DNA of 64,000 nucleotides from a virus: the IMG/VR virus record IMGVR_UViG_3300008262_000045, positions 4,710 to 68,709 of that record; one strand, written 5' to 3'. Every line of letters begins with the position of its first letter. Positions within the stretch are counted from its first letter, which is position 1. Below the pieces are notes generated by a model. It had not been told where the DNA came from, did not search any database, and saw nothing but the letters and a program-made list of their open reading frames with translations. The position numbers and the translations under genes are program-made. Shown piece after piece: positions 1,850 to 53,463 of the stretch.

Positions 1850-1854
1850 AAAGA

Positions 1855-2385: not shown

Positions 2386-2447
2386 CATTGCGCCAAACTT
2401 TACCATTGATCTTGCCGAAACATTAAACAATAAACAGAACAAAACTT

Positions 2448-4817: not shown

Positions 4818-4842
4818 CGCTATAAAATAGATAATAAATTTA

Positions 4843-7800
4843 ATGGGAATACGAAACGACCTTGAATCGGCCATGCGTTCGGGAGACAGCATGGGAGTAT
4901 CTAGAATCCGAGACGAAGCCTCATCCTACGGGCTTACGGATGTCATGCGGCAAGCGGAACGCAATCTCCGTGAAATAGAAAAGAACAACGCCCGTGCCGA
5001 GCGTGAACGAATCAAGGGGCAAAAGGCTATGGAGCGCGAAGCCGCTCAACAAGCCAAGGATGCGGCCAGCAAATACAAAGAAGGCGCGATTGCATTCTTT
5101 ACGGAAGGCACAGGAGCAAGTCGAGTAGTTAAACCTATTTCCGCCCCGTCAGGTGGCGTGATGAAAAAATATAGCAAGAATGGCCCATTGTGGGATAGTA
5201 TTTCTGGCTTGCCATACGCCCGCAACGAGGTAGACGGGCAGCTAACACAAATTGACCCACTAAAAGACGGCAAGACCGTTGTTAAAGATGGCCATGTGTA
5301 CAAAGTTGTTGACGGCATGGCTTGGGAATGGGCGGGATTTGACCCGAACGCTATTGGTAACGACCCTGCGCTTGCGAAAGAACTAAAAGACAAGGCTGCA
5401 GAGCTAAAAAAAGAAAGCGAGCTAGCAAACAGCGAGATGGCTCTATTGAAGAAAGATATTGCCAGCGATGAAAGCAGGCTCCGCGACCTTGAGAAGCAAA
5501 AGAAATTAGCGTCAGGCGATGAGTACAACCGACTGCAAGGGGAGATTGACAAGCTCAAGAATGGAATTACTGGGAAGAAAGACAAGTTAGAACTGGCCGA
5601 GATTGAATCCTACAAAGCATTGGCTCGGCGCAAAGAGTTTGACCAACAATCCGATCAAAAGCTGGCTCAAGACTTGGCAAACCGCAAGCAACTGGCTTAC
5701 ACAGGCGATCCTAAGGGAGGGATGGGGGTGGATAGCGCGATTGCTAGAGGGCAAAAGGCGCAGCAACTTAAAAACTCATATAGTCCCGAAGATTTGCTCC
5801 ATGAGATGATAATGGGGAATATCAACCCTGATGGAACAAAAGGGAAAGGGTTGCAAGGTCTTATTGACGGTGGACTTCAACGCGATTCCATGTACTTGAA
5901 TCAGTGGGGGCAAGCAGTAGACAAGGCTAATGCTCAAAAGCGGGATGCTCAACAGAAAGAGTGGGCGCAAAATAAATCAACTCAAGCTACTCTTGATCTT
6001 GTTAGAAGCCAAAAAGATATCAAGCTAACAGGCACAAATGACAAAGGTCAACCAAGCGGGATGCTCAATGATCCCAAGATAAAGCCAGAACTTAAAACTA
6101 AAATACAGGACTTTATAAACAAGACAGGGCTAACATCAATCCCTGCATCCTGGCAAACCCAAGAAGCTCAAGAGGCCCGCGCCAATGCCGGGCTTTATGG
6201 ATACTACGATGTTTCCGTCCCAAAAAACTTTACACTTAAAGACGGCAAGATCACTACCACCAAGGAGGAACCCGCCAGCATTTGGGGGGTTGATATGCCG
6301 TGGAATACGAGCAAGGAGGTTAATGTAGGCACATATCAATTTGATAAGAATGGCGTTCCGTTTATCGAGCTTGATAAAAACAACCGCCTCTCCCCCTCGC
6401 AGTTATCCGGCAATCCCCTTGATGGAGTGAAGGAGTATATGCCCATGCCTGATAATTGGGTCAGCAATTTTATTCCTAAAGACCCGAGTTCTATCAAAAC
6501 ATTCAAAGACCTTGATACGAACACGCAGAAATCGTTGATGGCTGACTACAATAAAGAGGTATCCAACTATCAACAGACAGCAAAGGACGCTTGGGCGGGG
6601 CAGAAGATGGACGCTGGCCGGGTTCGCGACACGCTAGACCGATGGACAGTAGCAACGCCAGCGCAACGCCAAGAAATGATTGCCGAGCTTGATCCTCGAC
6701 AAGCCAAGATACCAGCCGCAGATCGACGCCTTGACACCCGCGCTTTGTTTGAAGCTGGAGTTATCAGCGCACAAGATGGACGCTTGTTTGAAAAGGCATT
6801 CTATGGAACAGAACCAGCCATGCCTAATGTCAACGAGGCATGGGAGGATTGGAAATCAAGTAGCGCAAATGGGCAGAAGTACACCGCAACAGCTTCCTCT
6901 ATTGGTGATTCTACCCTAACAGGGAATTTGCTTAATCTACTGCCAGGGTCAATAGCAAAAGTTGGGGCCAAGTTGTTGCTGGATAAAAGCGCACTTGGAA
7001 CTTTAGTGAGTGCCGATGCAAAGGCCAGACTCACAACGCTTGAAGCCGACGCTAAGCAGAACTTCCTGACAGACTACTACAAAGAAAACTCTCGGCGTGT
7101 TGATTTTGATGACAAATCATTTACGCAGACCCGCAACGCCATGTTGAAAGATGTTCCGATAACGGAATGGGCCAACAAGGTGATTGTTGATTTAGCGTAT
7201 GGAGTAGCCGGCCCCGCAGTTGGCATGGTTGGCGGCACGGTAGCGTTAGTTGCGGATGCGGCAGTTGATAAAGTGAATCAAGTGCTTGGCTCAAATAGGA
7301 TTGATTTGCTTAACGACAAGGAGCGGAAAATAATAGAGACTCAAACCTCTGCTTCATTGCGGAACATGAGCATGGCGGTTGCTGATCGACTTGAACCGCT
7401 TGCTAAGGTTAATGCAATGTTAACCCCAGGAACCGGCATGGTTATGGCCGCGCTTGGAGCGTATGATAAAAACGCACCCTCTGATTTATGGAACGGCAAA
7501 ACTGCCGGACAATTAAACCGCAAGCTAGACGGGCTTATCAATGAAATTGATAATGGCACTTTGACAGAAGCAAAGTACGCGCAGTACGACAAAGAAATTA
7601 GCGCGCTTTCCAAAGCGTTTAACGATCAGAGATCAAAGGCGAGTGGATGGATGGGGGGATGGGACGATAAGGCTGGCATCAAGCTAGACTACGAAAACAG
7701 CATCTCAAATCCAAAGTCTGCAATGGCTCAATACATTGCGGCGTACCAAGAAACTCGCGACCCAAGGCTCTCCACATCATTAAAGGGGGCAGCATTCAAC

Positions 7801-10800
7801 TCGCAAGCAGAGCTTGAGATTCAAAGGGCAGCAAGTGATTATGCTACGATGAACGGGCAGTTAAATGAAACTGTACCATTCGGAGGATTTATGTCGGCTG
7901 TTCGCGGGGGGTATGTCGCTCCGCTTACTGAGCAGGGGATCGAGTTATTAACTAACATTGCTGGCGTTGCAACCGGTGGCGCGCTATGGGGCGTCAAAGC
8001 ACTAGGCACAACAGCTAAAGCCAGCTCCGCATTAAACAAGGCCGCAAAAGTTGTCAATGCTTTAGAAGACGGGGCCGGGGTTGTTGGTGATGCTTTCCGA
8101 GGGCTTGGCAAGATTGAAAGACAGCCCGGAGTTAGCCTTACAGACGGGCAAAAGTTATGGAATACCAGCGTTGATCTAACAAAGCAATACACGGTATCTG
8201 GCGGTGGAGAGTTCTTCCAAGAATCTATTGCCGCATTTGGCGAGGCCGGGGCAACCGTTGGCGACGCTCTTAACCAAGGATTTAGCGGGTTGATCGGCGG
8301 CGTTGGAATGTCAGCAGTTCACGGAGGAGTGGGTTATGGGCTGAATACTATTACTAGCGGCATCAAGCAGGCGAAACTTGAACAGGCCCAAACTAAAACG
8401 CTGACAAAATTCGTAGAGGACTACAACAAAACCAATACATCAGGCACTCCGCTAACTCTTGACGAAGCAAGGCAAGCACAAGCCTATCAATCGCCTGCAA
8501 CCGTTTCTATGTTGCAGAATCAGCGTAAGGACTTGATCACTCGGTTAAGTAATGTCAATGCCGAAATCAAATCCCTGCCTCCTACTCCAATAGCACCCAA
8601 AAACCCCACCACCCCAGGTAAAGTGACAACCCCTAAGTTGGCCACTCGCCGGGAGACACTGCTTAACGAAAAGAATCAGATCGAAGGCCAGTTGGCCGCT
8701 AATACGCTCGACACGGTTGTTATTGGCGAAAACAGCTTCACGATTGCGCGGGAGATCAACAAACTGCCAGAGCAACAGCGCGCACTAGTTGATGCAACTA
8801 TTCGCGCCGCTAATGGATCACCGCTAACCGAACAGCAAGAGAACCTTTTAATCAATCATCCTACCAAGTCAGGCAGTCCAGCAGCATACACCTACGGAGA
8901 GACGAGCTTTGACTTTGTGCTGTCTGATGAACTGCGAGCGGAGATCAAGCAAATTGCGCCCGAGACAGCTAAAACCCCAGCGATTCGCAAGACACAAGCT
9001 GAGCGTGATGCCGAGTTGCGGGCCAAGTACGGCGGCGTCTTTAGGTATATCAACGGCAAGCAAATATTTATTGCAGACAAACCGCAGGGACAAGAGGCGG
9101 CAACTCCCCAACCGCAACCTAAGCCTAAACCCAAGGCTCCCCCGCGCTTAAATACTGACAACATGACGCCGCCAGTGCAAAAGCCGTCAGCACCAGCAAC
9201 CTCAATCCCGCAACGGGAAAATCCAGCGGAGCAAGCCCCTACTCCAATCCAAGTCACGCCTACTGTAACAGAGAACTTCCAAACGGAAGACGGGCAAGAA
9301 GCCACCGGCACATTTGAAAAGCAACCCGATGGGAATTGGCAACAGACTAGCCCCGAGGCTCCAACTTTTACCATCACGCCTGCTGACACGCAGTTCTACC
9401 AAACCCTAGAGGATAAAGCGGCTTATGCGTTAAACCCACAGTCACCCGACCCTGTACAGCCCGGCGAATACAAGCAAGCAGGCTATACCGCAATTGAACC
9501 CGCGACAGCATCGACCCCAGCAGATACCGCGATCAATGTCCAACCAGCTCAAGCCGACTCTGTTGAGCCAGCAACGCTTGTTCAGCCAACAGCGACAGAC
9601 CCAGCCCTAACACAACAGCAATCCCGACCCGGAACCCCTGATGCTGTCAATACAAGCAGCCAAGTATTGCCGCCGCCGATACCTGCCGAAGCATACTCGC
9701 CGCAAGTTTTCATGCAGCCTGTAAATCGCGGTTCAGCATTGCTTATGCTTCAAACTGCCGCGCCGTGGGTATCCTCTGCTCCGATTGTTGTTCGCTCTCC
9801 GCGATTCTTTATCAATAGCGCCGGCAACAAGGTTATTGACGCCGAACAACACGCAAGCCTGCCAGCTAATGAGAAGGCTGATTACAGCCCGAACCAAGGC
9901 GCTATGTTTGCGTTGGATGGTAAAATCTATGTGGATGAAGCCGCGCTAGTCGATTACATCAATGCCACGGCTCCCGAGTTGAGGCAGGACAAGCTCAAGG
10001 CCGCATTGCGCGAAGAAGTTATTCATGTCGCCACTATGAATGTGCGTGACAGCAAACAGATTTCCGAGGATTGGAATATGTTGCCTGACGAGGCTAAACG
10101 CCGCGTCATTGAAACATACTTCACATCCGACTTGGAACGAGCCGGAGGCGATTGGACACAAGTCGAAGTCCCCGCCTTTAATGCAGGAGCGGAGTTCTGG
10201 CGCATGTACCTGAACGCCGTTACAGAGGGCCGCACCACAGAGCAAGTTGATTTGCTCACAGAGGTAGCCGAATACGCAAAGACAAACCCCAGCTTTGCCG
10301 CCAGGATCAAACAGGCACTAGAAGACATTGCGCGTTGGTTGCGCGAGGAACTTCTAAGCAATCTTGACCCTGACGCCCGCGTTCAGTTCGAGCAAGCCGC
10401 ACAGAAAATCGAAGCGGAGGTTGCAAGACTTGAGCAGGAGTTCGGCATGACCAACGCAACTGCGACGCCGGAAGCCGAAGCTGCTTCCCCGATGGCATCG
10501 CCTGTGGTAGAAGCCAATGCGCCTCCGGCTCTCCCTGCCGAGACAATCAGCACAGAGCCTGTCACTCTACCTGAAAAGCCGAAGCCAAAGAATCAGGCGT
10601 ATGTGCCTAAACCTGCCATTGGATCATCCGCATGGAAGCAAGAGGCTGTCTACACCTCATTAACTGGCGGGGCCGCAGCGTTTGGCTACAAGATAGTTGA
10701 TACTGGCATCGCTAGCCCGTTTGAAGCCTACGGCAATACGCTAAATTGGGGTACACAGCTTTACGACAAGCTCAACCCTGGCAGTGAGATCGGGCAATGG

Positions 10801-22800: not shown

Positions 22801-25800
22801 CAAAATTACGGGGTTGGATTTGATGTTGGCTTGCTTTCAAAAAACGCAATAGATTTGCTTGCTGACAGGATTCTTTTCCTAGACGCACAGGTTTTTATTG
22901 ATTCAGGGGCTTTCAGCCATTTTGTCAAAAATGAAAAACTAAAAGCCGAGGGTAAAAAAACATTAGCGCCTTTGGACTTCGATAAGATTTTCAAAAAGTA
23001 CGACGCGATTACGGAAGCCATCTACGAGCAAAACAAAGTAGAAGCAGACTATCCTCGCCCGCTCATGGTTATGCCTGACATTATTGGCGACCAAAAGGCA
23101 TCACTATTACTTACTGAACAATACAAAAATCGCATTGCGATTGAGACAGCGGTAAATACATTTACCCCAATCATTCCTATACCGCTTGGCGAATTATCTC
23201 TTTCACAGGCATATAGTAAAATTATTGAGATACTAAAGACTAATGCGTCAGGAATAGAAATTGATCCTGCCAAGTTCATTGTTGGTATTCCGTCTAACGC
23301 GCAAGCCGTGAGCAGGGAGCAACTCGCTGAGTTTTTGCGTGAATCCAAACCACCCCGCATTCATTTCCTTGGCGCGGCAGCAGACATCAATATTAACCCG
23401 TTGCTCGCGGTTGTCGCTAGAACCGCCCCGGATACGATTGTTACGGCGGATGCCAGCAAGGTAAGGTCTGAAATCCTTAATGGAGTGGCGGCTGGAAAGA
23501 CGCGCCAGCAGGCAATTATCGACGCATTAAATCAAGAAGATGATCCAATAAATGTTTTGGAGAATTTCAGCCAAGTAGCTCCGCTCTTTGCCAAAGCCCG
23601 CAAGCTCCGTCCTGATTGGCCGGGAATGCTAAATCAAGCAAACGACATCAGCATTCAAGAGTTTGCAGAATTGGCAAAAGATGGACGCTTGATCCAAGCC
23701 ACCGGCAAGCCAAACGAATTTGAGGCTGGTTCAGGCAAAACGCCGCTGAGCGTTGGCGCAGCCTCTGGATATTCGCTGAATGACATCGCGCATTTCTACA
23801 TTGCCCGCCAGTTGCCGACAAAATTCAAAGACAGCACCGATGCGTCACGCCTTGTAAATCAACTTGTCGCCACTAATAAAGACCCCGCGCAAAGCAATAC
23901 TGTTTTGCGGGCGTTCGATAGATTTGCCGAAGATGCCGCAAGCGAAGCGCAGGCCGTGCCGCTTTCAGCCAAGCCCCGCCCATCTTCTCTCCTTGCTGAT
24001 ACAAAAGGCAAGGTGATAGCAGGCACGGCTGTAGGCACTCGCAATCCAACTGGCAAGACCGCGCTGGAGGCTGGCACGGATCGTTCTGCTCTGGTCGATC
24101 TCGCCTCGATGCGGCGCGATCCAGAACTTTTCCGAAAAAACGCCGTGCTACTCGCCGACTTCCCGCTAGTGGCAGGCCAAGTGCCAGAGGCCGCGAAGCT
24201 CGTTCGCGACATAAGCGCCCCGCTTAAGCAGGCCCGCGAGCAGTTCGCTGATGCCAGCAAGCGACTAGAGGATGCCCGCAACGAACTCAAAGCCGAACTC
24301 GCCCGCCGCCAAGGTGTGCGCCCGAACAAGATCAAGGTGACCGAGGTGGACAAGCTGGAGAGCGGCGAGTCCAAAGTGAAGCGAACAGATGCGGTGGTGA
24401 AAGCCGCCCTGCAAAAGATCAAGGACGCCCGAAAAATCCAAGCCACCTTCGGCGACAAGCGCGACAAGAGTCAGGCCGAATTTGAGGCAAACTCTAAAGC
24501 TCTGCTTGCCGGGGATCAGTTCTCAATGGAACTCGCCGAGCGTGTTTACGATGCGCTCAAGACCTCCGCAAAGCGCAACCTAGAGCTTCTTATCGAGCTA
24601 TTCCCTGAAGACCTCCGCGACACCGCACGGCTCTGGTATGACGGCGCGAACATCATCGCGCAAGACTTCGCCGCCCGCTACAACACCACGCTCAACCGCT
24701 CCGCCGCTGTATTGGCCGTCTTCTCCCCGCAGAAGGATTGGTTTATGAATGTCGCCCTCGGCCAGCGCATGATGAACATCTGGGCCAACCACCAGGACAC
24801 GCGCTTCGATGATGCGATGGCAAAGCAATACCTCATGCGAGCCGGTGAGCCGGAGCCGCAGTGGGACAAAAAATCCGATGACTACAAGCGCGACGCCAAA
24901 GGCGAACTCGTCTACACCAAAGGCGCGAAGCCGATCCGCGACGAGGAAGGTAACATCACCGGTTGGGAAAATTGGGACAACGAAAAGGCGCAGGAGAAAT
25001 TTAATGAAGCCAAAATGGAACTTGCCATAATGCGCGGCAAAAAACTTTCTGAGCTTCCCTTCGATCTCCAAGCCCGATTCATTCGTATGTGGAGCGAGGT
25101 TTACGACGCCCCAGGCTTCCCGGTGGTTACGCCTGCCGGAACATTCGGCAACAATAAACTCTCCGAAAAAGGCAATGAACAACGCCTCGCTTGGGGTAGC
25201 TACAACACCATTGAAAAAGCGATTCGTATTCTCACCGCGCCTGAATCCTCCGAGATGCAAGTGATCTCCAACGAACTTGGCGTCCAGCACAAGGTTCGCA
25301 GCTTTTACAATAATATCGCAGACCCCGCGAATGCGGATGGTCATGTCACGATGGACACCCATGCCATCGCCGCAATCCTCTGGCAGGCACTCTCTGGCAA
25401 CAGCCCTGAGGTGAGCATGAACTTTGGAAGCGGCGGAGCCTCGGGCAACAGCAACCTCGGCATCTCTGGACTTTACCCGGCTTTTGCTGAAGCCTACCGC
25501 GAAGTAGCGGCAGAATTTGGTTTGCTTCCTCGCGAAGTTCAGAGTATTACTTGGGAAAGTGTTCGCCTGCTTTTCCCAGCGAAATTCAAGAGCCAAAAAG
25601 CCAATGTCACCAAGGTTCGCGAAGTCTGGAATCAACACGAACAAGGAATCATCACCACAGAACAAGCCCATGACCGCATCTACCAAATTGTCGATGAATG
25701 GAAACGCCGAGGCACTCTTGCGGGACAACCCGGAAGAACTGCGGCAGATGCAATTGCAGATGGTTCAGGAGTGGGCAGACCAGACTGGGCAACAATTACC

Positions 25801-28800
25801 CGGAGCGGTGACAATAATTCTGAACTATCGCAAGCGCCCGCTGACGCAGGAGGACTACCTGACCGCGGACGGCGGGGGGATGGAACTGGACGATCTGCTG
25901 TCGGACGACGAGGCGCTGGCCGAGATGCCGGACTTCTTTCTACAACTCCCAAGGGGAGACAGCCCAGGGCTGTATTAGCGGCCAAGCCCCGCAATACTCC
26001 GCCTCCGATGCCTCCGATGGAGAAGCGAATCGAGGCGAGTCTGGATGCGATTGAAAAGTGGAACGACTTTTTGCGAGCCGTTGAAGAAAAGCCGGCTGGT
26101 TCGTTGAAAAAATTCGCAGAGGAAATTAAAGCGAATACCCCGCAAGATATTTGGCGCGGGTATCAGACGATCTTCCGTGGCCGATTAGATGTTGCCGATT
26201 CATTGGCTCCTGGCGTAAAGGCAATTTTACTGGCATCGAAACAAGAGGAAGCCCTAGCGCAAATTGGCATTAACGCAGTGGTTGACGGACTTCGACGCGA
26301 ACTGCAAAAGGCTTTTGGCGATCCTGCATTTTGGAACAAAAACCGCGCTAGATTGAAAGAGGCAACCCGATTGCTTTTGCCGATTGCCAGCTACCTACAA
26401 CCAGAGCGTCCAGGTGTGGACGGCGGATTTGATTGGCGCGAATTTGAGCGCCGCGCTGGAACGATCAGCCAAGTGGAAATTCGCAAGATGCGACTGAAAG
26501 ACGGCCAGTGGTTTGAGTATGATGGGAAGACATATCGGCTAGGCGAATTTTTGCCGGATGAAAAAGCCTATGTGCTTTTGGAGCCGGTCAGCGTGGAAAT
26601 GCAGCAAGCTATTTACGAAGAGTTTTGGTCAAACTTTCCCGAGGCTTTGCCAATTCTTAACCGCTGGATTACGCCAGAGTTGAAGGACGCATACACAGTT
26701 GGTCTTGGCGGAACAATGAGCGTTGAGTTTAACCGCGAAGCTCTCCTTTCGTTTATGAACGAATGGCCGCAAGATTTGAAAGAGGCTTTCGGAGACATGA
26801 CTCTACCCTCGGTTCCGCGACTTGAAGGCTATACGCCCGACATTGCGGCACAGCGCAGTATCGTTGCTGTTATCGCGAAATTACTTGGGCTTTACAAATC
26901 CCCTGGCCGCAAGTTTAAGACCGGCGCACTTCGCGAGGCCGGCAATGTCAAAAACTTGATTGATGGGTTTTCGACCCGCGCAATGGAGGCACACCGCGAA
27001 AAAATTCGTATGCGGACGCGGCAAGGCATCATTGAAAAAGCCGTTGTTTTTAGAGAGGATGTTCCAGCAGAAAACATAGGTGACTATGTAGCCCTCGAAG
27101 ATGTTTTCAGTAGCATCGTAAAAGCCGTTCAGTCCGCAAGACTGCTGGATGAAAAGGCATACCCAAACCTTTCAAAAGCCCTAAATCCAAAAGACCAAGT
27201 TCAACTCATGCGTCTTGTCGGAGATGCCGCGAGATTAAATGGCATTGAGCAAATGGTTCACAAAAATGTTTATCGCGAACTCATGTTGAGCATGGCGCGG
27301 GCGCAAACCGAAGGAATGCTTTTACGCGCTTTGAACTTTTTGTTGCGCGGCGCAAAGTTAGGAAAATTAACAGCCGGCTCCGTTGGCATAAACTGGCTAG
27401 GAAACCAAATCCTTACGCTTACACAAGCGATGAACAGGATGTTTGCCGGCATGACGCACTTGGCGCTATTAGACTCAAGGGGAGCAAAAGTAAATACCCT
27501 GGAGGCTCTTTTCTTATTGAGAGGGCTTATCACAGATCGTGCGCCAAACACGCTAAACCAATCGCGCATTGGCGACTTAATCCCTCGCGAGCTTTTTGAT
27601 AGCACAACGGCCCTGTCTAGCCTCGATGCAGGCGCAGACTACGGCAACTTGGTTGATGACATTAAACGAAACGGCATTCTCCGGGGGCCAGCACAAGGAC
27701 TTGTCAACGCATTCAAACAAGGAGGAATCAGCGCAAGTATTCTTTATGGCGTACACTACTCTGGTGGCGACGCCGCCGTAAAACAGCAAAGTGCATACGC
27801 GGCATACAGAGCGCGTGCTGAAATTGCGGCCAACGAAGCCAAGATTAAAAGCGGCAGATCCGAATGGATGCGAAATTGGATACAACAGCAAGTTCGCGAA
27901 AATACGGAAATTCATCGCGAGGTGATGGATGCGGCCAAGCTCTATTTCATGGATTATGAAAATGTCCCCGCATGGCTCGATCCTTCATCCAGCTTGCCGG
28001 AAGAAAAGGCTAGAAAATTCTTAAAAGAACACGGCCTATGGTTCATCAAGTACCCTTACAATTTCATACGGTTTGTAAAACGGCTTGGACTTGATGGTGC
28101 TATTGAGTTTGCGTCGCCATCCTCGACAAAACAAGAACGGGCGCGTGGTTTGGCCAATATGCTTACGATTGCGGCGGTTGCTTACGGCGGCTCCGCCTTA
28201 CTATCCGGCGGTGAAGATGATGATGATATTATTGGCTCGCGCTTTGATGAAGAAGGGAAACTTAAAGACCGCAACCAAGATACTAGTAGCCGCATGAACC
28301 TGTCGGCGATTGGAAGGAAAACGCATCTAGGACGAGTTATTGCAAGCGCCCTTCGCATGGCAGGCGTAAGCATTAACGACGATCTAACAAATCATCGAGG
28401 CGATGATTATTGGATGTATTACCAAAATATGACTTGGATGAAAGAAAGCCTTTTGATGGGGCGGGCAGTTAATGGAGACTATCAAGGATTTCTGAAGGAT
28501 TCAGGAGCGTACATATCCGATTTGACGGCGATGGGTATTTTAAGCCGCATGATGGGTCTTGCTAAAGTTGGAAGTATTGATGCCAAAAAAAGCCCTGTAA
28601 ATTTAGCTACAGAGGCATTCTTTGAGGCATTAAGTTCTCCGGTCAATCCATCAGCGTTGACAAACTATATTGGCAACATGACTGATCCAATTGTTCGCAG
28701 AACAACCAGCAGCGCAAGTCTTGGATTTAATATGGGGCCGCTGGAAAGCATTATGGCTGGAATCCCTGGACTTCGAGAAAATCTACCTGCCGCAGGGGAG

Positions 28801-29322
28801 CCGATTAAGCCCGCCCTTCTAACAACAAATGTAGATCGTGACCGGCGAATGGCTACGCAGGCCGAGAAAATCAGAAAAAACGAAAAGCTCACTCCAGCGC
28901 AAAAAGACGCCGCGATAGCTAATCTGCAAGCACAACGAGCAGAGCAAGCATCCAGACCATCACAAGTTGACTTGAATAATCTGTTTTGGGGTATGGGTGT
29001 AAACCCTGACAAAATCAAACCAGGAGTAGGAACAACTACCCGTGATATTGTTAGCGACCTTGCTCGACTGCAAGCCATGGGAGCAGGGCCAGAGAGCGTT
29101 AATGTTTATGACGAAAAACTTAAAAGTGGAGAAACACGGACTTATATTACATACCCCGATCCTGACACCGTTGCAATACGCGATCCGTTTTTCTCGCTAT
29201 TCAAAGTTGCAACCGGCGTGAATATCCGACCATTCCCTAATCCGAAAAAAGCAGCAAGCGGCAACCCTAACAATTTCGTATTCGGACAACCGCAGGCCAA
29301 CTTGACTCTGCCGAAACAATAG
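4843..29322 (+). CDS. Giant polyvalent phage protein (8,159 aa), probably virion-packaged and ejected with the DNA
   Basis: Uninterrupted 24,480-nt ORF directly upstream of the portal; many recognisable polyvalent-protein domain motifs (see sub-features). Confidence 0.92.
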   Translation: MGIRNDLESAMRSGDSMGVSRIRDEASSYGLTDVMRQAERNLREIEKNNARAERERIKGQKAMEREAAQQAKDAASKYKEGAIAFFTEGTGASRVVKPISAPSGGVMKKYSKNGPLWDSISGLPYARNEVDGQLTQIDPLKDGKTVVKDGHVYKVVDGMAWEWAGFDPNAIGNDPALAKELKDKAAELKKESELANSEMALLKKDIASDESRLRDLEKQKKLASGDEYNRLQGEIDKLKNGITGKKDKLELAEIESYKALARRKEFDQQSDQKLAQDLANRKQLAYTGDPKGGMGVDSAIARGQKAQQLKNSYSPEDLLHEMIMGNINPDGTKGKGLQGLIDGGLQRDSMYLNQWGQAVDKANAQKRDAQQKEWAQNKSTQATLDLVRSQKDIKLTGTNDKGQPSGMLNDPKIKPELKTKIQDFINKTGLTSIPASWQTQEAQEARANAGLYGYYDVSVPKNFTLKDGKITTTKEEPASIWGVDMPWNTSKEVNVGTYQFDKNGVPFIELDKNNRLSPSQLSGNPLDGVKEYMPMPDNWVSNFIPKDPSSIKTFKDLDTNTQKSLMADYNKEVSNYQQTAKDAWAGQKMDAGRVRDTLDRWTVATPAQRQEMIAELDPRQAKIPAADRRLDTRALFEAGVISAQDGRLFEKAFYGTEPAMPNVNEAWEDWKSSSANGQKYTATASSIGDSTLTGNLLNLLPGSIAKVGAKLLLDKSALGTLVSADAKARLTTLEADAKQNFLTDYYKENSRRVDFDDKSFTQTRNAMLKDVPITEWANKVIVDLAYGVAGPAVGMVGGTVALVADAAVDKVNQVLGSNRIDLLNDKERKIIETQTSASLRNMSMAVADRLEPLAKVNAMLTPGTGMVMAALGAYDKNAPSDLWNGKTAGQLNRKLDGLINEIDNGTLTEAKYAQYDKEISALSKAFNDQRSKASGWMGGWDDKAGIKLDYENSISNPKSAMAQYIAAYQETRDPRLSTSLKGAAFNSQAELEIQRAASDYATMNGQLNETVPFGGFMSAVRGGYVAPLTEQGIELLTNIAGVATGGALWGVKALGTTAKASSALNKAAKVVNALEDGAGVVGDAFRGLGKIERQPGVSLTDGQKLWNTSVDLTKQYTVSGGGEFFQESIAAFGEAGATVGDALNQGFSGLIGGVGMSAVHGGVGYGLNTITSGIKQAKLEQAQTKTLTKFVEDYNKTNTSGTPLTLDEARQAQAYQSPATVSMLQNQRKDLITRLSNVNAEIKSLPPTPIAPKNPTTPGKVTTPKLATRRETLLNEKNQIEGQLAANTLDTVVIGENSFTIAREINKLPEQQRALVDATIRAANGSPLTEQQENLLINHPTKSGSPAAYTYGETSFDFVLSDELRAEIKQIAPETAKTPAIRKTQAERDAELRAKYGGVFRYINGKQIFIADKPQGQEAATPQPQPKPKPKAPPRLNTDNMTPPVQKPSAPATSIPQRENPAEQAPTPIQVTPTVTENFQTEDGQEATGTFEKQPDGNWQQTSPEAPTFTITPADTQFYQTLEDKAAYALNPQSPDPVQPGEYKQAGYTAIEPATASTPADTAINVQPAQADSVEPATLVQPTATDPALTQQQSRPGTPDAVNTSSQVLPPPIPAEAYSPQVFMQPVNRGSALLMLQTAAPWVSSAPIVVRSPRFFINSAGNKVIDAEQHASLPANEKADYSPNQGAMFALDGKIYVDEAALVDYINATAPELRQDKLKAALREEVIHVATMNVRDSKQISEDWNMLPDEAKRRVIETYFTSDLERAGGDWTQVEVPAFNAGAEFWRMYLNAVTEGRTTEQVDLLTEVAEYAKTNPSFAARIKQALEDIARWLREELLSNLDPDARVQFEQAAQKIEAEVARLEQEFGMTNATATPEAEAASPMASPVVEANAPPALPAETISTEPVTLPEKPKPKNQAYVPKPAIGSSAWKQEAVYTSLTGGAAAFGYKIVDTGIASPFEAYGNTLNWGTQLYDKLNPGSEIGQWIDAMNAGTNPAGNAIIQAASEPGLHRVWYGHDFATNLDNVVAEFGWTAVPEFIGQLLKDSLTKSGIPFPGVELLVQSGAVSDRTATDWLSTNIGEVFGGGLAFLGTYKLYKAAKGGKLSKPQVLFATVGIGLKMVSGVMTAQPFLVLSGLADTAILVTNLDQVKSAFQKGIKEFNKKPKAVRDLYEQVAPPASSPTQQTLPQDGQEVKSLGSYPGNAGANPAPATNQGIEATPPPLPPETFEALPPPLPPESRTEATPPPLPSQEGEVAAPAEPKIKMKQAADRLGITPKELLVLARGGTIPAQKDGSNYLFSPSDLTAYADKLAAKTSDIATKLQATDANTATSKDIDSLKNQGYVEMRRGQPVITVKGYDLLAKQGVQPSMTRKERIEQIEAEFNTQQSEKAPEIELHPRVNKQGRYYIVPGPNGSLAATISDADDAKAREKANQVALEFEAREKAINDELAAERANQQQPESQDESTDASLVPQFKKALMQKMKTISDLRDQEKLTPESNKTLIKQVAEVANKLGMQETHPGSLLLNFSTAPGLLMKRQADLITAVHGMMEGQSISVQPVELNAKGGKGSPTELTGLENRTLSWGEMILLGAMEAKPMPDGSLELTLGQSAVQIKERLTQEEAEAAEQEYYDELKAELNIISAGQDASPTGRELLDAIEEAGGLPSPNSETEQEFTGELKTLWESAGAMGKGAYAGKGVFRNNIFRLNAPPLDKLAAHLRGHGFSVWGANDIFELVDARFRSNKPMYGTSWQDDGGYRAVASKTPRKVVSWDIPTRNTNTEYILNGLIAGRGQPVGMFIPNFDADGNLMADTLPAEGDIEFRHLDAPLGSENEYLTKDQMRELMEIRATDTRFWNRNSFEIREIRYADSDKAFKKTDRLQMPERQVTLSNAVVSEKPGPVFIKKAYHGTPHKVDRFSTSKVGTGEGAQAFGWGLYFAEAWKVAQSYQDRLSDYSSPGRYTWQGSTYESDNYKSPERHAVSLAYHQGLPQTKKIAQLGLRDAKRGEPYAIEQGGIPYYERMLEVARSIKSQKDIGFVQGNIYSVELNVDNADLLDWDAPISKQSKQIRAFFEPVLAKRKEEMESKSSIYTTPIDETINNATGAEAYGWLASATQLNSQQKASEALAANGIMGIRYLDDGSRDIPKIKWNAYNGFRIEAPGSRTLIEEGTTKENNLYAYVWPAGEGNWKASYESKAPGEVVDNQFGEFASESEAKAAIADRFKQTSNFVIFDENLIQIIGQNGEPVGNASVLSAKPTAAQLKAAQDYTARNGTSAGADIVAQQVANVTSPFRQDTYQLDLFGDRSPIEPENAPTEVEADEYALLLESGFKGNWEALGKVIAKQGKASVIMPELIDSKIPAWNPVGTLVEKPADFAALMLPIRTPYHEMLKVAILDDQNKIVAAQIVSVGSVNETVAHSQNILGFLSRYRAMNPDSDEHRIIISHNHPGGDPTPSPADYRVQKSFEKIADLLDYTIADHVITNGKSYFSFKTESTNQLEEDNAAWEKVSISDLPTLNSSEQLAKLTQSLAQSNPNASHIVFYNTRNRVIAVEQFDPDVQVETDLGLSGSPGRDGNGGTVVLAQQVFDRAALYGAYSFSLALRNAGDPKLNESVASPTASHYRFIKALNDSIEPLQLRMLDAITVGSSDYFSWREAGLLRETDGQSPMFAKSRPTSPHQLDLFSNNYNATATPWTPSWQKEEAQQTESSDAAPEDGLKLVTQKPTGIIEDFGEKLEGARKDIWRQYTDALMADLPEDAREIVMSKHFPEPDYEAMILSGMEPERVAAMKALRDLVPRKPTLGYKLRRWTEMVGQIRGIVQRLVDPKDSITMERFNEIVNRINFRELRDAADFYAALGFPYFMKAKGWKLRQSSEYTRWNGQPLEKGKIVSHMEQEHRAFTNLSSVNNDGDWKQGYNSVIQKFREYLDAQSEAPKGESKIDFKFYKDRATGEVFIGKKGLSGVIRMQTGFTGVKEAMAWLADNYNELALKWEGMKKDPALRRAINDPRSGPTRREGDVTPEQFSEAFGFRGVQFGNYVEGDRRQKDLNNAFDAFMDMADALGVPAKALSLDGSLGLAFGARGTGGKRPAAAHYEPSQVVINLTKNAGPGSLAHEWFHALDNYFARLEKTGSTAPKAIDSYATENLGLRAGIMMNNRGEVAGYRSDAQNVRAEIAEAFRGVRNSLGGDLDARNRKLDAARSKPYYSLTIEKAARAFESYIVDRLGKTSITNDYLANIDPFSEAYPTQAELDNGIRLAYDNLFTKMDTRQGERGTMLFAKTRGLKAININDTDQDFTSQILRGEKTIETRPTPSLSPYIGERVGLIKTHDNSKRFPATLVGYATIGEPIFYPDEASFRADEDKHLVKKGTFHDIKEGSGKYGYPLLDVQTTAPTEMGDARGIVARNLDSVFMRLAQNPEANREQLQQMVDEAAKNKGYNVKAYHGTDAAPFSEFDPNLSGQATGIESDFSFHFTTDRDRASRYGERVMEVWLDIQTPMDINIKDRTNKVWKNYGLPAPRPGESIDTYYDNNIEKITDSLFFGQEIDIIIRDNNHAHFVVGDNKAIKSADPVTYDANGNIIPLSERFNPESESILFAKARPTQDKGFYLKSAELLDAKIQGKQATLEQVQALLQNPQNGIKAEELKWTGVMQEAERLANENNGNVPKEDLLDFLAKDGAVELREAFFGTLAPTTPATRLGVANLEGKFMQWADGLTSENIKSIEDVGFTLQEFPSDIDQVASEARFSQYQLPGGENYREVVLAMPLDPISEKGKRWQFIDQRLDVLKEMAKELLPLESVDPIAKKKLAEIEDEYANLADEMASIPIREAQVTSSYTSSHFNTPNYIAHMRLNERTDAEGNEGLFIEELQSDRHQAGRRQGYGETFAVMTPRPLMEGGGKKEVASFDTRAEAESYVSQNRSPLNNLQIVAKSGIPDAPFRTSWPIQLFKRALRDAVVSGKDWIGWTDGETQNDRYDLSKSVDTIEVEARDGAFHDVRIFEKSGSVIDLEVDGGMVKYGQFANKRLDEIIGKDMADKILAVENDTAADFSGIDLKVGGSGMKGFYDNMVPKEVAKYVKQWGGKVDKSSIGQEITENDLGMEGLEDATPEELAEFEATGKVVGETVPIWRVDITPQMRESVESGQPLFAKARPSAPSSSLPGNYPDTLDIVVRATKVAKLRLAGLKEGESTVPLDPSPVQAGRSPDLTPVSPLYKAAKHGSSMSAALDIAEMFATAPLVESIKERLSPDKPVVFVPVRHFDPGLFHNALPGAFATVLRDRIPNSTVDTNILKSGGMSNTSVSTAQRMGNTQEFTGPVDPDVQYVIVDDVYTSGNTITALIDHIVRAGGEVVAATTIADSQSQNYLKPRPQDVTKLLDRSGLISESFQSEIGFPIEALTGSEIYRIANLERNWTGSAFIKERFSKRSGIFAERSRLDAERNGQADVPAALSVKSRSVAEIPNINELPEGITVFSGAGLVEIGLQGLVTPTFAVEYNPAIAQAYRAAWGDHVQVADIRSVSMDGQQGKFYYHASPVCKNSSLLKSESTGGGEKDLDIESARIVAEHIKTIQPQVVTIENVAAYRKTIAAQAIRDALNEQGYTFDEGIYNAADYGAPTARRRYLLRAIKGGALLPEATPVKGPGWYETIKDIIDELPDDSIENAAYIKRSLPEQGVDLENITEPLLVSGTTLFKKVAFARPTQPAFTFKATPATVDRILLPGGRVKRVTAKAKARMTGVPDSFPLPTDEKVALTIIGNGVPPALVRNAFGPVIEYARTRQAQQPLFAKNSARSMRGDTTGDLFGDQTPFNLVGEMLPPEAPAKPDIVVDAQARQEAFRKSGQEDVGDLFAPASAERIAATAVIDKDGVVLSSPSKTHAEIMEETKFDLDGGEFPPTQNFGFVTTSGRFVEQKEAQQIAQQARQVQGNQPISGEIVTELQREGLLAPAQKPAPATLPINEEFGFTQEIDAPIEKIKNNMVRFASGMSGLSDLGAATYVRGGMQNYGVGFDVGLLSKNAIDLLADRILFLDAQVFIDSGAFSHFVKNEKLKAEGKKTLAPLDFDKIFKKYDAITEAIYEQNKVEADYPRPLMVMPDIIGDQKASLLLTEQYKNRIAIETAVNTFTPIIPIPLGELSLSQAYSKIIEILKTNASGIEIDPAKFIVGIPSNAQAVSREQLAEFLRESKPPRIHFLGAAADININPLLAVVARTAPDTIVTADASKVRSEILNGVAAGKTRQQAIIDALNQEDDPINVLENFSQVAPLFAKARKLRPDWPGMLNQANDISIQEFAELAKDGRLIQATGKPNEFEAGSGKTPLSVGAASGYSLNDIAHFYIARQLPTKFKDSTDASRLVNQLVATNKDPAQSNTVLRAFDRFAEDAASEAQAVPLSAKPRPSSLLADTKGKVIAGTAVGTRNPTGKTALEAGTDRSALVDLASMRRDPELFRKNAVLLADFPLVAGQVPEAAKLVRDISAPLKQAREQFADASKRLEDARNELKAELARRQGVRPNKIKVTEVDKLESGESKVKRTDAVVKAALQKIKDARKIQATFGDKRDKSQAEFEANSKALLAGDQFSMELAERVYDALKTSAKRNLELLIELFPEDLRDTARLWYDGANIIAQDFAARYNTTLNRSAAVLAVFSPQKDWFMNVALGQRMMNIWANHQDTRFDDAMAKQYLMRAGEPEPQWDKKSDDYKRDAKGELVYTKGAKPIRDEEGNITGWENWDNEKAQEKFNEAKMELAIMRGKKLSELPFDLQARFIRMWSEVYDAPGFPVVTPAGTFGNNKLSEKGNEQRLAWGSYNTIEKAIRILTAPESSEMQVISNELGVQHKVRSFYNNIADPANADGHVTMDTHAIAAILWQALSGNSPEVSMNFGSGGASGNSNLGISGLYPAFAEAYREVAAEFGLLPREVQSITWESVRLLFPAKFKSQKANVTKVREVWNQHEQGIITTEQAHDRIYQIVDEWKRRGTLAGQPGRTAADAIADGSGVGRPDWATITRSGDNNSELSQAPADAGGLPDRGRRGDGTGRSAVGRRGAGRDAGLLSTTPKGRQPRAVLAAKPRNTPPPMPPMEKRIEASLDAIEKWNDFLRAVEEKPAGSLKKFAEEIKANTPQDIWRGYQTIFRGRLDVADSLAPGVKAILLASKQEEALAQIGINAVVDGLRRELQKAFGDPAFWNKNRARLKEATRLLLPIASYLQPERPGVDGGFDWREFERRAGTISQVEIRKMRLKDGQWFEYDGKTYRLGEFLPDEKAYVLLEPVSVEMQQAIYEEFWSNFPEALPILNRWITPELKDAYTVGLGGTMSVEFNREALLSFMNEWPQDLKEAFGDMTLPSVPRLEGYTPDIAAQRSIVAVIAKLLGLYKSPGRKFKTGALREAGNVKNLIDGFSTRAMEAHREKIRMRTRQGIIEKAVVFREDVPAENIGDYVALEDVFSSIVKAVQSARLLDEKAYPNLSKALNPKDQVQLMRLVGDAARLNGIEQMVHKNVYRELMLSMARAQTEGMLLRALNFLLRGAKLGKLTAGSVGINWLGNQILTLTQAMNRMFAGMTHLALLDSRGAKVNTLEALFLLRGLITDRAPNTLNQSRIGDLIPRELFDSTTALSSLDAGADYGNLVDDIKRNGILRGPAQGLVNAFKQGGISASILYGVHYSGGDAAVKQQSAYAAYRARAEIAANEAKIKSGRSEWMRNWIQQQVRENTEIHREVMDAAKLYFMDYENVPAWLDPSSSLPEEKARKFLKEHGLWFIKYPYNFIRFVKRLGLDGAIEFASPSSTKQERARGLANMLTIAAVAYGGSALLSGGEDDDDIIGSRFDEEGKLKDRNQDTSSRMNLSAIGRKTHLGRVIASALRMAGVSINDDLTNHRGDDYWMYYQNMTWMKESLLMGRAVNGDYQGFLKDSGAYISDLTAMGILSRMMGLAKVGSIDAKKSPVNLATEAFFEALSSPVNPSALTNYIGNMTDPIVRRTTSSASLGFNMGPLESIMAGIPGLRENLPAAGEPIKPALLTTNVDRDRRMATQAEKIRKNEKLTPAQKDAAIANLQAQRAEQASRPSQVDLNNLFWGMGVNPDKIKPGVGTTTRDIVSDLARLQAMGAGPESVNVYDEKLKSGETRTYITYPDPDTVAIRDPFFSLFKVATGVNIRPFPNPKKAASGNPNNFVFGQPQANLTLPKQ
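9890..10260 (+). other. Giant-protein domain: zincin-like metallopeptidase (MPTase-like, EExxH variant)
   Basis: GKIYVD...ALREEVIHVAT (EEVIH at 10012-10026) then AGAEFWRM as possible third ligand; boundaries approximate. Confidence 0.55.
10630..11310 (+). other. Giant-protein domain: HRxxxGHD domain with hydrophobic, membrane-like helices
   Basis: GLHRVWYGHD (10873-10896), KDSLTKSGIPFPG, then Gly-rich hydrophobic helices VFGGGLAFLG and VLFATVGIGLKMVSGV. Confidence 0.45.
11626..11770 (+). other. Giant-protein domain: excisionase/MerR-like HTH (HTH_17 type)
   Basis: IKMKQAADRLGITPKELLVLARGGTIPAQKDGSNYLFSPSDL. Confidence 0.7.
13549..14560 (+). other. Giant-protein domain: ADP-ribosyltransferase-like 1 (ART-PolyVal type)
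   Basis: KAYHGTPH...GTGEGAQAFGWGLYFAE...GIMGIRYLD...NFVIFD. Confidence 0.75.
14920..15810 (+). other. Giant-protein domain: JAB/RadC-like domain plus a second degenerate copy
   Basis: E...ILDDQNKI...IIISHNHPGGDPTPSPAD...DHVI (HNHP at 15163-15174); second copy lacks the His ligands and ends YFSWREAGLL. Confidence 0.85.
16006..17620 (+). other. Giant-protein domains: LPD5-like then LPD1-like (HExxH)
   Basis: IEDFGEKLEGARKD; FGFRGVQFGNYV; GSLAHEWFHALDNY (HEWFH at 17161-17175); EKAARAFESY. Confidence 0.8.
17668..18030 (+). other. Giant-protein domain: ASCH
   Basis: ILRGEKTIETR (GxKxxExR)...GERVGLI...LVGYATIG. Confidence 0.75.
18136..18597 (+). other. Giant-protein domain: ADP-ribosyltransferase-like 2
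   Basis: VKAYHGTD..FSEFD...FHFTTDRDRASRYG..VMEVWL...IKSADPVTYD.NGNIIPLSERFN. Confidence 0.75.
18625..20240 (+). other. Giant-protein domain: EExQSD module of phage virion proteins, function unknown
   Basis: GIKAEELKWTG, LPGGENYREVVL, SHF...AHMR, FIEELQSD (19411-19428), PDAPF, GMKGFYD. Confidence 0.6.
20440..21030 (+). other. Giant-protein domain: type I phosphoribosyltransferase
   Basis: PRPP-binding loop VIVDDVYTSGNT at 20776-20811. Confidence 0.85.
21208..22110 (+). other. Giant-protein domain: DNA (cytosine-5) methyltransferase
   Basis: Motifs in canonical order: FSGAG (I), AVEY, ADI, SPVC (IV, Cys kept), ENV (VI), AADYGAPTARRR (VIII), IGNGVP (X). Confidence 0.88.
22735..23520 (+). other. 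Giant-protein domain: TGT/DpdA-like TIM barrel
   Basis: VFIDSGAFS (DSGAF at 22900-22914), MPDIIGD, RIHFLG, ADAS. Confidence 0.55.
24620..25570 (+). other. Giant-protein domain: HhH-GPD/glycosylase-like helical domain
   Basis: LWYD...AVFSPQKDWFMN...KVRSFYNNI...VTMDTH (25345-25362)...YREVA...EVQSITW. Confidence 0.55.
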
Positions 29323-53417: not shown

Positions 53418-53443
53418 ACCCCGCTGGGGACAACCAGCGGGGT
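53418..53443. terminator. 10-bp GC-rich hairpin (terminator-like on the minus strand)
   Basis: ACCCCGCTGG-ggacaa-CCAGCGGGGT with an A-tract on its left. Confidence 0.5.
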
Positions 53444-53463
53444 CAACGAAGGAACCAAACGAA

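Follow-up and report, generated by a model that had tools for sequence, protein, structure and literature searches.

Proteins of phages that unite many unrelated enzyme domains in one chain were described as polyvalent proteins by Iyer, Burroughs, Anand, de Souza and Aravind (2017, PMC5512222), whose main text gives members 2-15 domains, calls those above 2,000 amino acids (aa) 'large' and proposes that they are injected with the phage DNA. The same text (PMC5512222) suggests that metallopeptidase domains may process polyvalent proteins, P1 DdrB being processed and the N4 virion RNA polymerase (vRNAP) unprocessed, and it describes a methylase-helicase dyad in which a methyltransferase is fused to an SF2 helicase and LPD36. 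In the short-tailed temperate Escherichia Stx phage phi24B, as reported in a preprint (10.64898/2026.04.10.717836), the 2,811-aa protein gp47, which carries LPD5, LPD1 and LPD38, was detected by proteomics of purified virions, and a role as an ejection protein is proposed for it. Cysteine suppression is described as conserved in a three-gene ejection operon of the Schitoviridae, which includes a vRNAP of ~3,400 aa, and is tied to passage through the oxidizing periplasm (PMC11445570), while the PhiM1 ejectosome, of ~1.5 MDa, is reported to pass a nozzle of ~30 Å by partial unfolding (PMC11440229). Here we analyze a 64,000-nucleotide (nt) stretch of viral DNA (bases 4710-68709 of the 68,709-bp IMG/VR record IMGVR_UViG_3300008262_000045, a metagenome assembly), referred to below as the window, in which a single gene encodes a protein of 8,159 aa. 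This protein, the giant, is well supported as a phage-type polyvalent protein and an extreme member of that known class, and it is probably packaged in the capsid and ejected into the host as a carrier joined to its cargo.

The giant gene is one open reading frame (ORF) at 4843-29322 on the plus strand, with an ATG start and a translation without stops; its 24,480 nt occupy 38.25% of the window and 35.6% of the 68,709-bp genome, and the product has a computed mass of 894 kDa and an isoelectric point of 5.5. The coordinates, strand and length in the initial annotation of this DNA were exact, as was the 38% share of the window, and its estimate of roughly 0.9 MDa agrees with the computed mass. 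Its classification of the product as a phage polyvalent protein is likewise sustained by the hallmark LPD1, LPD5 and ART-PolyVal domains, by the match to phrog_616 and by the adjoining portal gene. Where at least two unrelated catalytic or LPD domains mark a polyvalent protein, the giant has RadC, LPD5, LPD1, ART-PolyVal and DNA_methylase, all above cut-offs. In common with the class as presented in the main text of PMC5512222, it gathers many unrelated enzyme domains on one polypeptide, its gene lies by portal or packaging genes, and its repertoire includes LPD1, LPD5, ART-PolyVal, metallopeptidase-like, PRTase and DNA methylase domains. It departs from that account in scale (~17 modules in 8,159 aa against 2-15 domains), in having conserved end modules with no Pfam model, in counting a C5 methylase and a TGT-like barrel among its cargo, and in placing RadC within a giant phage protein. 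The last feature recurs, duplicates counted, in 17 of the 124 giants compared, a set made up of 120 database proteins and the proteins of four related virus records (G001-G004) with some duplicates among them; all five RadC-bearing giant loci that were examined are phage loci with a portal gene adjoining. The words 'cysteine' and 'linker' are absent from the main text of PMC5512222, and in the open literature on LPD5, LPD38, large polyvalent proteins and DUF7178 only that paper and the phi24B preprint were relevant, the supplements of the former (domain tables, alignments) being a place where larger architectures or models of the end modules or of the EExQSD domain described below may be held. 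The likeness to phi24B gp47 lies in the LPD5 and LPD1 core and runs via domains and phrog_616, not via direct alignment; gp47 is about one third of the giant's size and has LPD38 and MuF-C, which Pfam does not detect in the giant (10.64898/2026.04.10.717836). An LPD38-bearing cluster is an atlas look-alike only of the giant's C-terminal module (score 0.95).

The composition of the giant and its upstream neighbors provides one tie to ejected proteins. A single cysteine occurs among the 8,159 residues of the giant (0.012%), and none in the three ORFs upstream (607, 176 and 789 aa), giving one in 9,731 residues for the four-gene block, whereas the other tabulated ORFs contain 100 in 10,583 (0.94%). 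The Poisson probability of at most one cysteine in the giant is ~3e-32, and the other two frames of its gene contain 191 and 374 TGT or TGC codons. The sole cysteine, C5523 (nt 21409-21411), lies inside the SPVC stretch of the methyltransferase and is presumably the motif IV nucleophile of the Pro-Cys motif; cysteine thus appears to have been purged except where catalysis requires it. Related proteins follow the same pattern, with 3, 1, 1 and 0 cysteines in the four relatives and, in the 120 database giants, a median of 0.043%, a maximum of 0.28% and 78 proteins below 0.1%, as compared with 0.7-3.3% in cytoplasmic enzymes of the phage. The giant and the three genes upstream therefore bear the published cysteine signature of podophage ejection operons. 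The Schitoviridae operon (N4 gp50 or DEV gp71 vRNAP, gp72 and gp73) similarly consists of adjacent genes that are all suppressed in cysteine but differ widely in length, the longest encoding an ejected protein of several thousand residues, and its reported cysteine content is 0.00075% against a proteome value of 0.865% (PMC11445570). The giant differs from the vRNAP in having no RNA polymerase domain detectable by Pfam, in carrying modifying enzymes as cargo and in being 2.4 times longer, and no sequence relationship between the two was detected. If the giant is indeed ejected, the one cysteine retained at the Pro-Cys motif would be a clean natural illustration of the selection acting on such proteins.

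The order of the genes recalls a second group of ejection systems. T7 gp14, gp15 and gp16 are ejectosome proteins that rise in size in that order, and the small, medium and very large products here (176, 789 and 8,159 aa) echo it. The giant differs from these proteins in having no lytic transglycosylase domain detectable by Pfam, and the gene group here precedes the portal instead of following the tail genes. Another large protein, P1 DarB, has been suggested to accompany phage DNA and counter restriction. The DarB-type likeness drawn in the initial annotation does not extend to the enzymes, since the methylase of the giant is a C5 cytosine enzyme without a helicase, and neither helicase nor N6-adenine methylase families were found in the giant with Pfam, PHROGs or NCBIfam.

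The domain content of the giant was evaluated with sequence profiles; residue numbers are positions in the 8,159-aa protein, and matches are called above or below by the Pfam cut-offs. Those above are RadC/JAB at 3368-3489 (PF04002, 1.5e-25, with the JAMM-type motif HNHPGGDPTPSPAD), LPD5 at 3907-4020 (PF18799, 1e-23), LPD1 at 4189-4261 (PF18796, 2e-13), the second ART-PolyVal at 4428-4561 (PF18760, 1.1e-10, 42.9 bits vs a cut-off of 31.2) and the C5 DNA methylase at 5458-5753 (PF00145, 3e-20, 73.3 bits vs 22), whose match is near full length (profile positions 5-318 of 324). The methyltransferase is also matched by phrog_116 (1e-31) and, under that model's own cut-off, by TIGR00675 (1.5e-16), and FSGAGL, SPVC, ENV and GNGVPP can be read in its translation; the names we apply to the methyltransferase, JAMM and phosphoribosyl pyrophosphate (PRPP)-loop motifs are assumed from general knowledge rather than computed. 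The LPD5/LPD1 pair, the second ART and the C5 methyltransferase had all been recognized in the initial annotation. DUF7178 (PF23802 at 6788-6905, 7.7e-21) was absent from that annotation's list. The Xis-like helix-turn-helix (HTH) that it proposed is matched by HTH_17 at 2265-2309, marginally, with 27.8 bits just above the cut-off of 27. Its first ART is likewise matched by PF18760 (2902-2947), although at 23.8 bits the score is below 31.2; the region recurs in 21 giants. The proposed PRTase is in a similar position, with a canonical-looking PRPP loop VIVDDVYTSGNT and a match to phrog_22413 (2.4e-26), but a PF00156 score at 5309-5351 of 21.9 bits, below 26.3. As for the two JABs of the initial annotation, the one at 3368-3489 is canonical, whereas the other (3609-3653, 24.9 bits, 2e-5) aligns with profile positions 77-121 only, the last third of the model, and shows no HxH; this partial match and missing motif point to a degenerate second copy next to the canonical JAB.

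The block that contains LPD5 and LPD1 is also the likely seat of a peptidase-like element. NCBIfam CLCA_X matches residues 4002-4231 (2.9e-36), the 2,793-position profile phrog_616 matches residues 3698-4276 (1e-94 to 8e-100), and the block as a whole is common to 48 of the 124 giants. The only HExxH in the protein, HEWFH at residue 4107, lies inside it, and no HxxEH occurs, which places the zincin-like element within the LPD5-LPD1 block and not at the N-terminus. An N-terminal zincin peptidase had been called initially, but no Pfam match supports it; the sequence EEVIH at 1724, which is 82% conserved across 11 sequences, is missing the first histidine and is not an HExxH. The membrane-like domain of the same annotation corresponds to a hydrophobic segment at 2109-2127 in module B, the only one above threshold (Kyte-Doolittle peak 1.67).

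The segment most widely shared with other giants (71 of 124) is the EExQSD module, which had been listed initially and whose core aligns in 46 sequences. The motif lies at 4857, and across this alignment Q4860, S4861 and Q4865 are 100% and E4858 is 98% conserved; conserved His and Arg residues are also seen in the domain. The module has no Pfam or PHROG match and is a candidate for an undescribed enzyme family. By comparison, the ASCH domain called initially is weakly supported at aa ~4276-4380: no Pfam match to PF04266 was found at E<=5 on aa 4272-4430, but residues 4276-4380 match 451-553 of the database protein P0170 at 7e-24, where Pfam ASCH scores 19.6 bits, below the cut-off of 21.2. An HhH glycosylase-like domain, also called initially, found no such link, for Pfam gave no match at aa 6251-6377 and only DUF7178 in 6375-7045, and no PDB sequence fell below E 0.3. 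More broadly, PDB sequence searches with aa 1-1400, 1650-3249, 4272-5138, 5773-6377 and 6377-7048 returned nothing below E 0.17, and the same was true of the module profiles A1 and A2.

The TGT/DpdA-like barrel proposed in the initial annotation could be addressed through structure. A model built from an 8-sequence alignment of aa ~5941-6244 is a (beta/alpha)8 barrel with eight beta/alpha units (predicted local distance difference test (pLDDT) 73, predicted template modelling score (pTM) 0.73), and the predicted fold is confirmed by comparison with known structures. Among 48,161 chains compared with VIA-align, archaeosine TGT 1iq8 ranked first (Z 14.4, root-mean-square deviation (rmsd) 3.7 Å, 214 residues aligned), with bacterial TGT 3unt (Z 13.4) and the DNA preQ0 insertase DpdA 7ui4 (Z 12.9, 16% identity) at ranks 2 and 4; unrelated barrels scored Z 12-13.2, so the lead of the TGT family over generic barrels is just 1-2 Z. 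Foldseek gave 169 PDB matches at E<=1e-3; those shown were mostly TIM barrels, and TGT, at rank 6, stood in the company of aldolases and TIM. An atlas cluster in which DpdA is annotated on 17% of members has a similarity score of 0.91 to the barrel. These rankings are suggestive of membership in the TGT/DpdA family, whereas a sequence link was not obtained from Pfam at E<=5 or from PDB at E<=10 with either the sequence or the 8-sequence profile. The zinc site of TGT is built from cysteines, and the barrel module holds none, so a TGT-type zinc site is impossible here; queuosine-pathway families did not turn up among the scanned ORFs. The barrel (window 22663-23574) is 75-85% identical in G001-G003 as compared with 35-70% for the flanking chassis, an excess that indicates either recent exchange or unusually strong constraint.

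A frame of this length in a metagenome assembly raises the question of whether it is an artefact, that is, a chimaera or a series of separate genes fused by sequencing errors, the more so because gene callers gave its nearest relatives only 4,807 and 4,935 aa. Searching five related virus records with the first 3,000 residues showed that these database entries are shortened gene calls of G001 and G002. Four of the records contain open frames of 7,150, 7,033, 8,656 and 5,885 codons without an internal stop, the fifth being a fragment with the first 227 residues only; from the first ATG, the proteins have 7,146 aa in G002, 7,029 aa in G001, 8,610 aa in G003 and 5,881 aa in G004, and they are 35-72% identical to the giant in common parts. 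Continuity was further checked, as the initial annotation had asked, with Logan contigs (not raw reads) from four runs, X2-X5, over window 4843-24842, which is the first 20 kb of the ORF and leaves its last 4.5 kb outside; no frame-breaking indel was seen. The contigs cover 30, 30, 30 and 28 of 30 bins, X5 being without cover in two. Contigs of X2 are almost identical to the giant gene with zero indels, and in contigs of diverged strains from other studies each listed indel is either a +1/-1 pair inside 2-8 nt or +3. Of the 40 best-supported single-letter strain differences listed, 29 fall at codon position 3 (p = 5e-7), and the genome itself has a 114-nt terminal repeat. Given the continuous frames in relatives, the indel pattern of the contigs and the codon-position bias, an artefact is very unlikely, to the point of being negligible, and the giant ORF is genuine and one continuous gene. 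In the same contigs, depth in X4 and X5 rises to 14-47 over window 17516-18849, against 0-12 elsewhere, and several joints with short sides (20-32 letters) pass over the second ART domain, skipping ~370-390 nt from about 18117-18138 to 18510; the flanks of that module are probably common to many other phages in the X4 and X5 samples.

The uniqueness that the initial annotation had implied does not hold, since the giant is not alone in its size class. At least 140 relatives have 4,487 aa or more, the longest of the 120 listed having 7,758 aa, and G003 exceeds the giant itself. Comparison with the four relatives by BLASTP resolves these proteins into conserved ends and a middle that varies from phage to phage. 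The conserved N-terminal part spans residues 3-2774 relative to G001 and G002, 7-1574 relative to G003 and 426-2219 relative to G004, and the conserved C-terminal module spans ~7046-8159. The N-terminal module sits at the start of those giants that carry it, and the C-terminal module lies ~10-90 residues from the protein end in 12 of 14 giants and ~190 in P0026, the row for G001 not being displayed. A profile of the C-terminal module found 116 representative clusters among 1.84 billion, nearly all unannotated, in proteins of ~1,100 to 7,063 aa, with the module near the C-terminal end in nearly all long members. In mid-sized proteins of this kind, sigma-70, PRTase, ART, MuF-C or ASCH domains precede it. 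Neither end module has a Pfam model.

Within the N-terminal part, the GGVFRYINGKQIF tag occurs at aa 1397, at a position equivalent to that in G001 and G003, and is followed by a Pro/Gln-rich linker of 240 residues. The same kind of tag lies at aa 575 of the 607-aa ORF and at the extreme end of the 789-aa ORF, and is internal in the giant, which suggests that the first 1,410 residues of the giant may once have been a separate protein of the same set. The consensus of the three copies is GG(S/R/V)F(R/V)x(I)NG(Q/K)xxF, at window 1748-1786, 4770-4814 and 9031-9069.

Between residues 3249 and 7045 the modules are separated by short linkers, (L/M)FAK(A/S/T/N)(R/S) six times and (L)(S/A)AKP three times. 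The pattern [LM]FAK occurs six times in the giant and in no other ORF, the one further match lying in an antisense frame within the giant gene; shuffled controls gave a mean of 0.21 and a maximum of 3 in 2,000 shuffles. G001 fuses what corresponds to aa 4274 and 5129 of the giant, joining the left side of the 4269 linker to the right side of the 5135 linker so that the ASCH/ART/EExQSD block is gone, and G002 lacks 5136-5770, so that the PRTase and methylase flanked by the 5135 and 5770 linkers are missing. Since the indels of relatives fall at linkers, the alignments identify the linkers as junctions for cassette exchange between related phages. They are specific to a clade: among 49 giants with the LPD5-zincin-LPD1 block, five have at least two [LM]FAK and 44 are without. 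Past two of the linkers the exact sequence QLDLF is found, at window 14722-14736 (30-45 residues past the 3249 linker) and 15862-15876 (~10 past the 3663 linker), and it resembles what we take to be the bacterial sliding-clamp-binding consensus. The pattern QL[SD]LF is enriched in 125 giants, with 14 occurrences where 0.65 would be expected, although these are confined to 8 proteins that include several duplicates.

Taken with the cysteine signature and the location of the gene, this architecture is what might be expected of a protein in which a conserved carrier frames a changeable cargo. The carrier, we infer, would consist of the N-terminal part from aa 1 to ~2770 and the C-terminal module at aa 7046-8159, and would act like the large ejection protein of short-tailed phages. 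The giant would be synthesized late along with virion proteins and packed, together with the three upstream proteins, in the head near the portal, in one or few copies; it would exit via the tail ahead of or with the DNA, extended or partly unfolded, and refold in the host. The end modules would manage packaging and passage, and the cassette would work in the cytoplasm. The cargo comprises about ten enzyme modules between these ends: the two ARTs, the RadC/JAB pair, LPD5-zincin-LPD1, the possible ASCH, EExQSD, PRTase, C5 methyltransferase, the barrel and DUF7178. Its domains are those documented above, and their activities are our reading of them. Likely targets before phage gene expression are host proteins, along with nucleotides and the DNA that enters. 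The methyltransferase, perhaps joined by the barrel, would protect this DNA from restriction by modifying it, the ARTs would consume NAD+ in altering host factors, and nucleic acids or nucleotides would be the substrates of RadC, PRTase, ASCH and the EExQSD domain. The passage of the 1.5-MDa PhiM1 ejectosome through its nozzle suggests that a 0.9-MDa protein in the capsid would be physically plausible (PMC11440229).

The C-terminal module was modeled to look for a resemblance to such proteins. The model, from a 29-sequence alignment, is mainly helical (pLDDT 75.8, pTM 0.72), as had been proposed initially for the last ~1,100 aa. The top match among the 48,161 chains in VIA-align is the PhiM1 pre-infection ejectosome, 8vb2_A (PMC11440229), also mainly helical (219 residues aligned over model positions 63-634, rmsd 5.6 Å), with a Z of 7.0 that is under the tool's reliability line for helical models, no chain reaching Z 8. 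In BFVD, 41 viral proteins matched at E<=1e-3 over ~650-1,260 alignment columns, with TM-scores that are low (0.18-0.34); many come from the terminal part of proteins annotated with 'large polyvalent protein associated domain', and others include an 'internal virion protein' of Synechococcus phage S-CBP2 and of Pelagibacter phage EXVC018P (TM 0.23) and a 'tail protein' of Anabaena phage A-4L. The predicted module thus bears a weak likeness to internal virion proteins and to the PhiM1 ejectosome.

Besides the low structural scores just given, several observations weigh against delivery with the virion. Foldseek found no PDB match to the C-terminal model at E<=1e-3 (best E 0.094), and neither the two chassis modules nor the upstream ORFs match any named ejection-protein family. 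The phage is known here from metagenomic sequence alone. The mass of 894 kDa is more than twice that of the largest cited ejected phage protein, the ~3,400-aa vRNAP of Schitoviridae, which is about 380 kDa. Four further ORFs are free of cysteine (32046-33449, 44129-45232, 45602-46537 and 49288-49743; 467, 367, 311 and 151 aa) and may be extra virion or ejected proteins, or cysteine-free by chance for their length, and zero cysteine in a short protein is thus unspecific. Finally, the LFAK linker is not general to the class, its five carriers being this clade or its duplicates, and cleavage at LFAK linkers is unsupported.

The linkers are central to two other accounts of how the giant might work. 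In one, the protein would be ejected as proposed above but as a polyprotein: the built-in HEWFH zincin-like element or the active JAB would cut the linkers between LFAK and xR, after ejection or in the capsid, and free about nine enzymes, several of which, starting with a clamp-type QLDLF, would attach to the sliding clamp of the host on the entering DNA, the linkers doubling as recombination joints. Such a double-stranded DNA phage would be using a strategy like that of RNA viruses for cargo needed before expression, and we consider this improbable. The LFAK linker was considered as a substrate of the LPD5-zincin-LPD1 block and rejected, since co-occurrence across the class would be expected and 44 of 49 block-bearing giants lack the linker. 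In the other account the protein is never packaged; translated in the infected or lysogenic cell, it would be cut at LFAKxR into structural pieces and about ten enzymes, and these enzymes would modify host factors and progeny DNA within the cell that produces them. Regular linkers at module borders and two possible peptidase domains in the chain, the zincin-like HEWFH and the JAB, would fit such a mechanism; P1 DdrB is described as processed before packaging (PMC5512222), and the C5 methyltransferase could equally shield progeny DNA ahead of packaging. However, most relatives have no linker to be cut, and a cytoplasmic function leaves unexplained the avoidance of cysteine in three neighbors and 120 relatives when cytoplasmic enzymes have 0.7-3.3%, the conserved modules at or near the protein ends, and the location in a virion gene block by the portal. 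For these reasons an unpackaged polyprotein seems to us unlikely.

Alternatively the giant could be packaged and yet remain with the virion or the envelope, as an internal core or channel scaffold in which the enzymes are largely vestigial or act locally at the envelope. The authors of the phi24B preprint propose that gp47 is a transperiplasmic conduit (10.64898/2026.04.10.717836), and in the giant the long conserved ends outweigh each single enzyme module and the second JAB appears degenerate. Largely vestigial enzymes are difficult to reconcile with catalytic signatures that are intact (HNHPGGDPTPSPAD, VIVDDVYTSGNT, FSGAGL, SPVC, ENV and GNGVPP), with the only cysteine being kept in the Pro-Cys motif of the methyltransferase, and with the higher identity of the barrel than of its flanks across relatives, which suggests strong selection. 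In addition, the substrates of these enzymes, NAD+, PRPP, S-adenosylmethionine and DNA, are cytoplasmic. A mainly structural role is therefore doubtful in our estimation, and packaging followed by ejection into the cytoplasm remains the account that we favor as probable.

Should the giant be ejected in this way, a 68.7-kb temperate phage would be devoting over one third of its coding capacity to one pre-made injected toolkit, which would show how far the carrying in of enzymes with DNA can go. The conserved end modules offer a handle for spotting such proteins in metagenomes, and the sequence between the ends is a catalogue of candidate anti-defense and host-takeover enzymes. Targets for biochemistry include the EExQSD domain, the cysteine-free TGT/DpdA-like barrel and the C5 methyltransferase, the last of which stands where the published methylase-helicase dyad has an adenine methylase (PMC5512222).

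Table 1. Features of the giant protein and its neighborhood, with positions in the window.
Feature	Position	Strand	Remarks
ORF, 607 aa	26..1849	+	0 Cys; GGSFRVINGQVRF tag at aa 575, near C-terminus; no Pfam or PHROG match
ORF, 176 aa	1855..2385	+	0 Cys; no family match (Pfam, PHROGs)
ORF, 789 aa	2448..4817	+	0 Cys; C-terminus ...GGRFVTINGQVRYFA; no family match (Pfam, PHROGs)
Giant polyvalent protein gene	4843..29322	+	Single ORF; frame conserved in G001-G004; indels compensating or in-frame
N-terminal chassis module A, aa 1-1410	4843..9072	+	Conserved N-terminally in G001-G004 and other giants; ends in GGVFRYINGKQIF tag (nt 9031-9069)
Pro/Gln-rich low-complexity linker, aa 1411-1650	9073..9792	+	11-18% Pro and 6-13% Gln per 100-aa bin over aa 1401-1700
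N-terminal chassis module B, aa 1651-2230	9793..11532	+	20 local domain matches to aa 1650-2000 among fetched proteins
Excisionase-type HTH, aa 2265-2309	11635..11769	+	HTH_17; TIGR01764 0.0023; phrog_66
ART-PolyVal module 1, aa 2881-3249	13483..14589	+	PF18760, below cut-off; ends at linker VLSAKPT
RadC/JAB module, aa 3250-3663	14590..15831	+	PF04002 1.5e-25; QLDLF at 3294-3298
LPD5 - zincin-like - LPD1 block, aa 3664-4269	15832..17649	+	PF18799, PF18796, CLCA_X, phrog_616
Possible ASCH (aa ~4276-4380) and ART-PolyVal module 2 (aa 4428-4561)	17650..18600	+	ART, PF18760; ASCH, transitive link only
EExQSD domain module, aa 4587-5135	18601..20247	+	Motif at 4857; common to 71 of 124 giants
PRTase-like (aa ~5199-5395) and C5 cytosine DNA methyltransferase (aa 5458-5753)	20248..22152	+	PF00156 weak; PF00145
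Mobile mini-domain (aa 5828-5932) and TGT/DpdA-like TIM barrel (aa ~5941-6244)	22153..23586	+	Structure model
Small module, aa 6249-6374	23587..23964	+	Linkers at 6248 and 6374; relatives in P0143 and G003; no family match
DUF7178-containing module, aa 6375-7045	23965..25977	+	PF23802; phrog_3842; common to 11 giants
C-terminal chassis module, aa 7046-8159	25978..29319	+	Near C-terminal end of long members; no Pfam match
Portal gene	29338..31470	+	PF23899 SU10_portal 1.1e-20; phrog_1216; starts 15 nt past giant gene

The surrounding genome belongs to a freshwater tailed phage that is temperate. Its record begins and ends with the same 114 nt, and the 68,709-bp genome is therefore probably complete. 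The stretch was found in lake, reservoir and other freshwater metagenomes from several studies. The giant gene begins 25 nt after the run of three genes and ends 15 nt ahead of the portal, which is followed by tail-fibre-like genes (Pfam, PHROGs) and, farther on, by an endolysin, a weak major-head match, an integrase (50925-51905, minus strand), and a RecT-like annealing protein and exonuclease (53338-55352). The last three mark the phage as temperate and equipped with a recombination module of its own. Most other phage genes were left unnamed by Pfam and PHROGs, and no terminase, scaffold or protease was identified among them with these profiles. Megablast found no near-identical DNA among GenBank phages, and tblastn with the portal returned just two distant matches at 24.5% identity.

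A prophage match was considered as a guide to the host and set aside: it consists of a single contig, 7.3 kb, in a metagenome-assembled genome titled Pelodictyon luteolum, and is too short to trust as a prophage. The leaders of the ORFs are rich in A/T, and a Shine-Dalgarno-like motif lies within 20 nt upstream of only 3 of 29 ORFs, the background rate being 14%. Low use of Shine-Dalgarno motifs with A/T-rich leaders is typical of Bacteroidota, a hint that the host uses initiation independent of such motifs, as in, for example, Bacteroidota.

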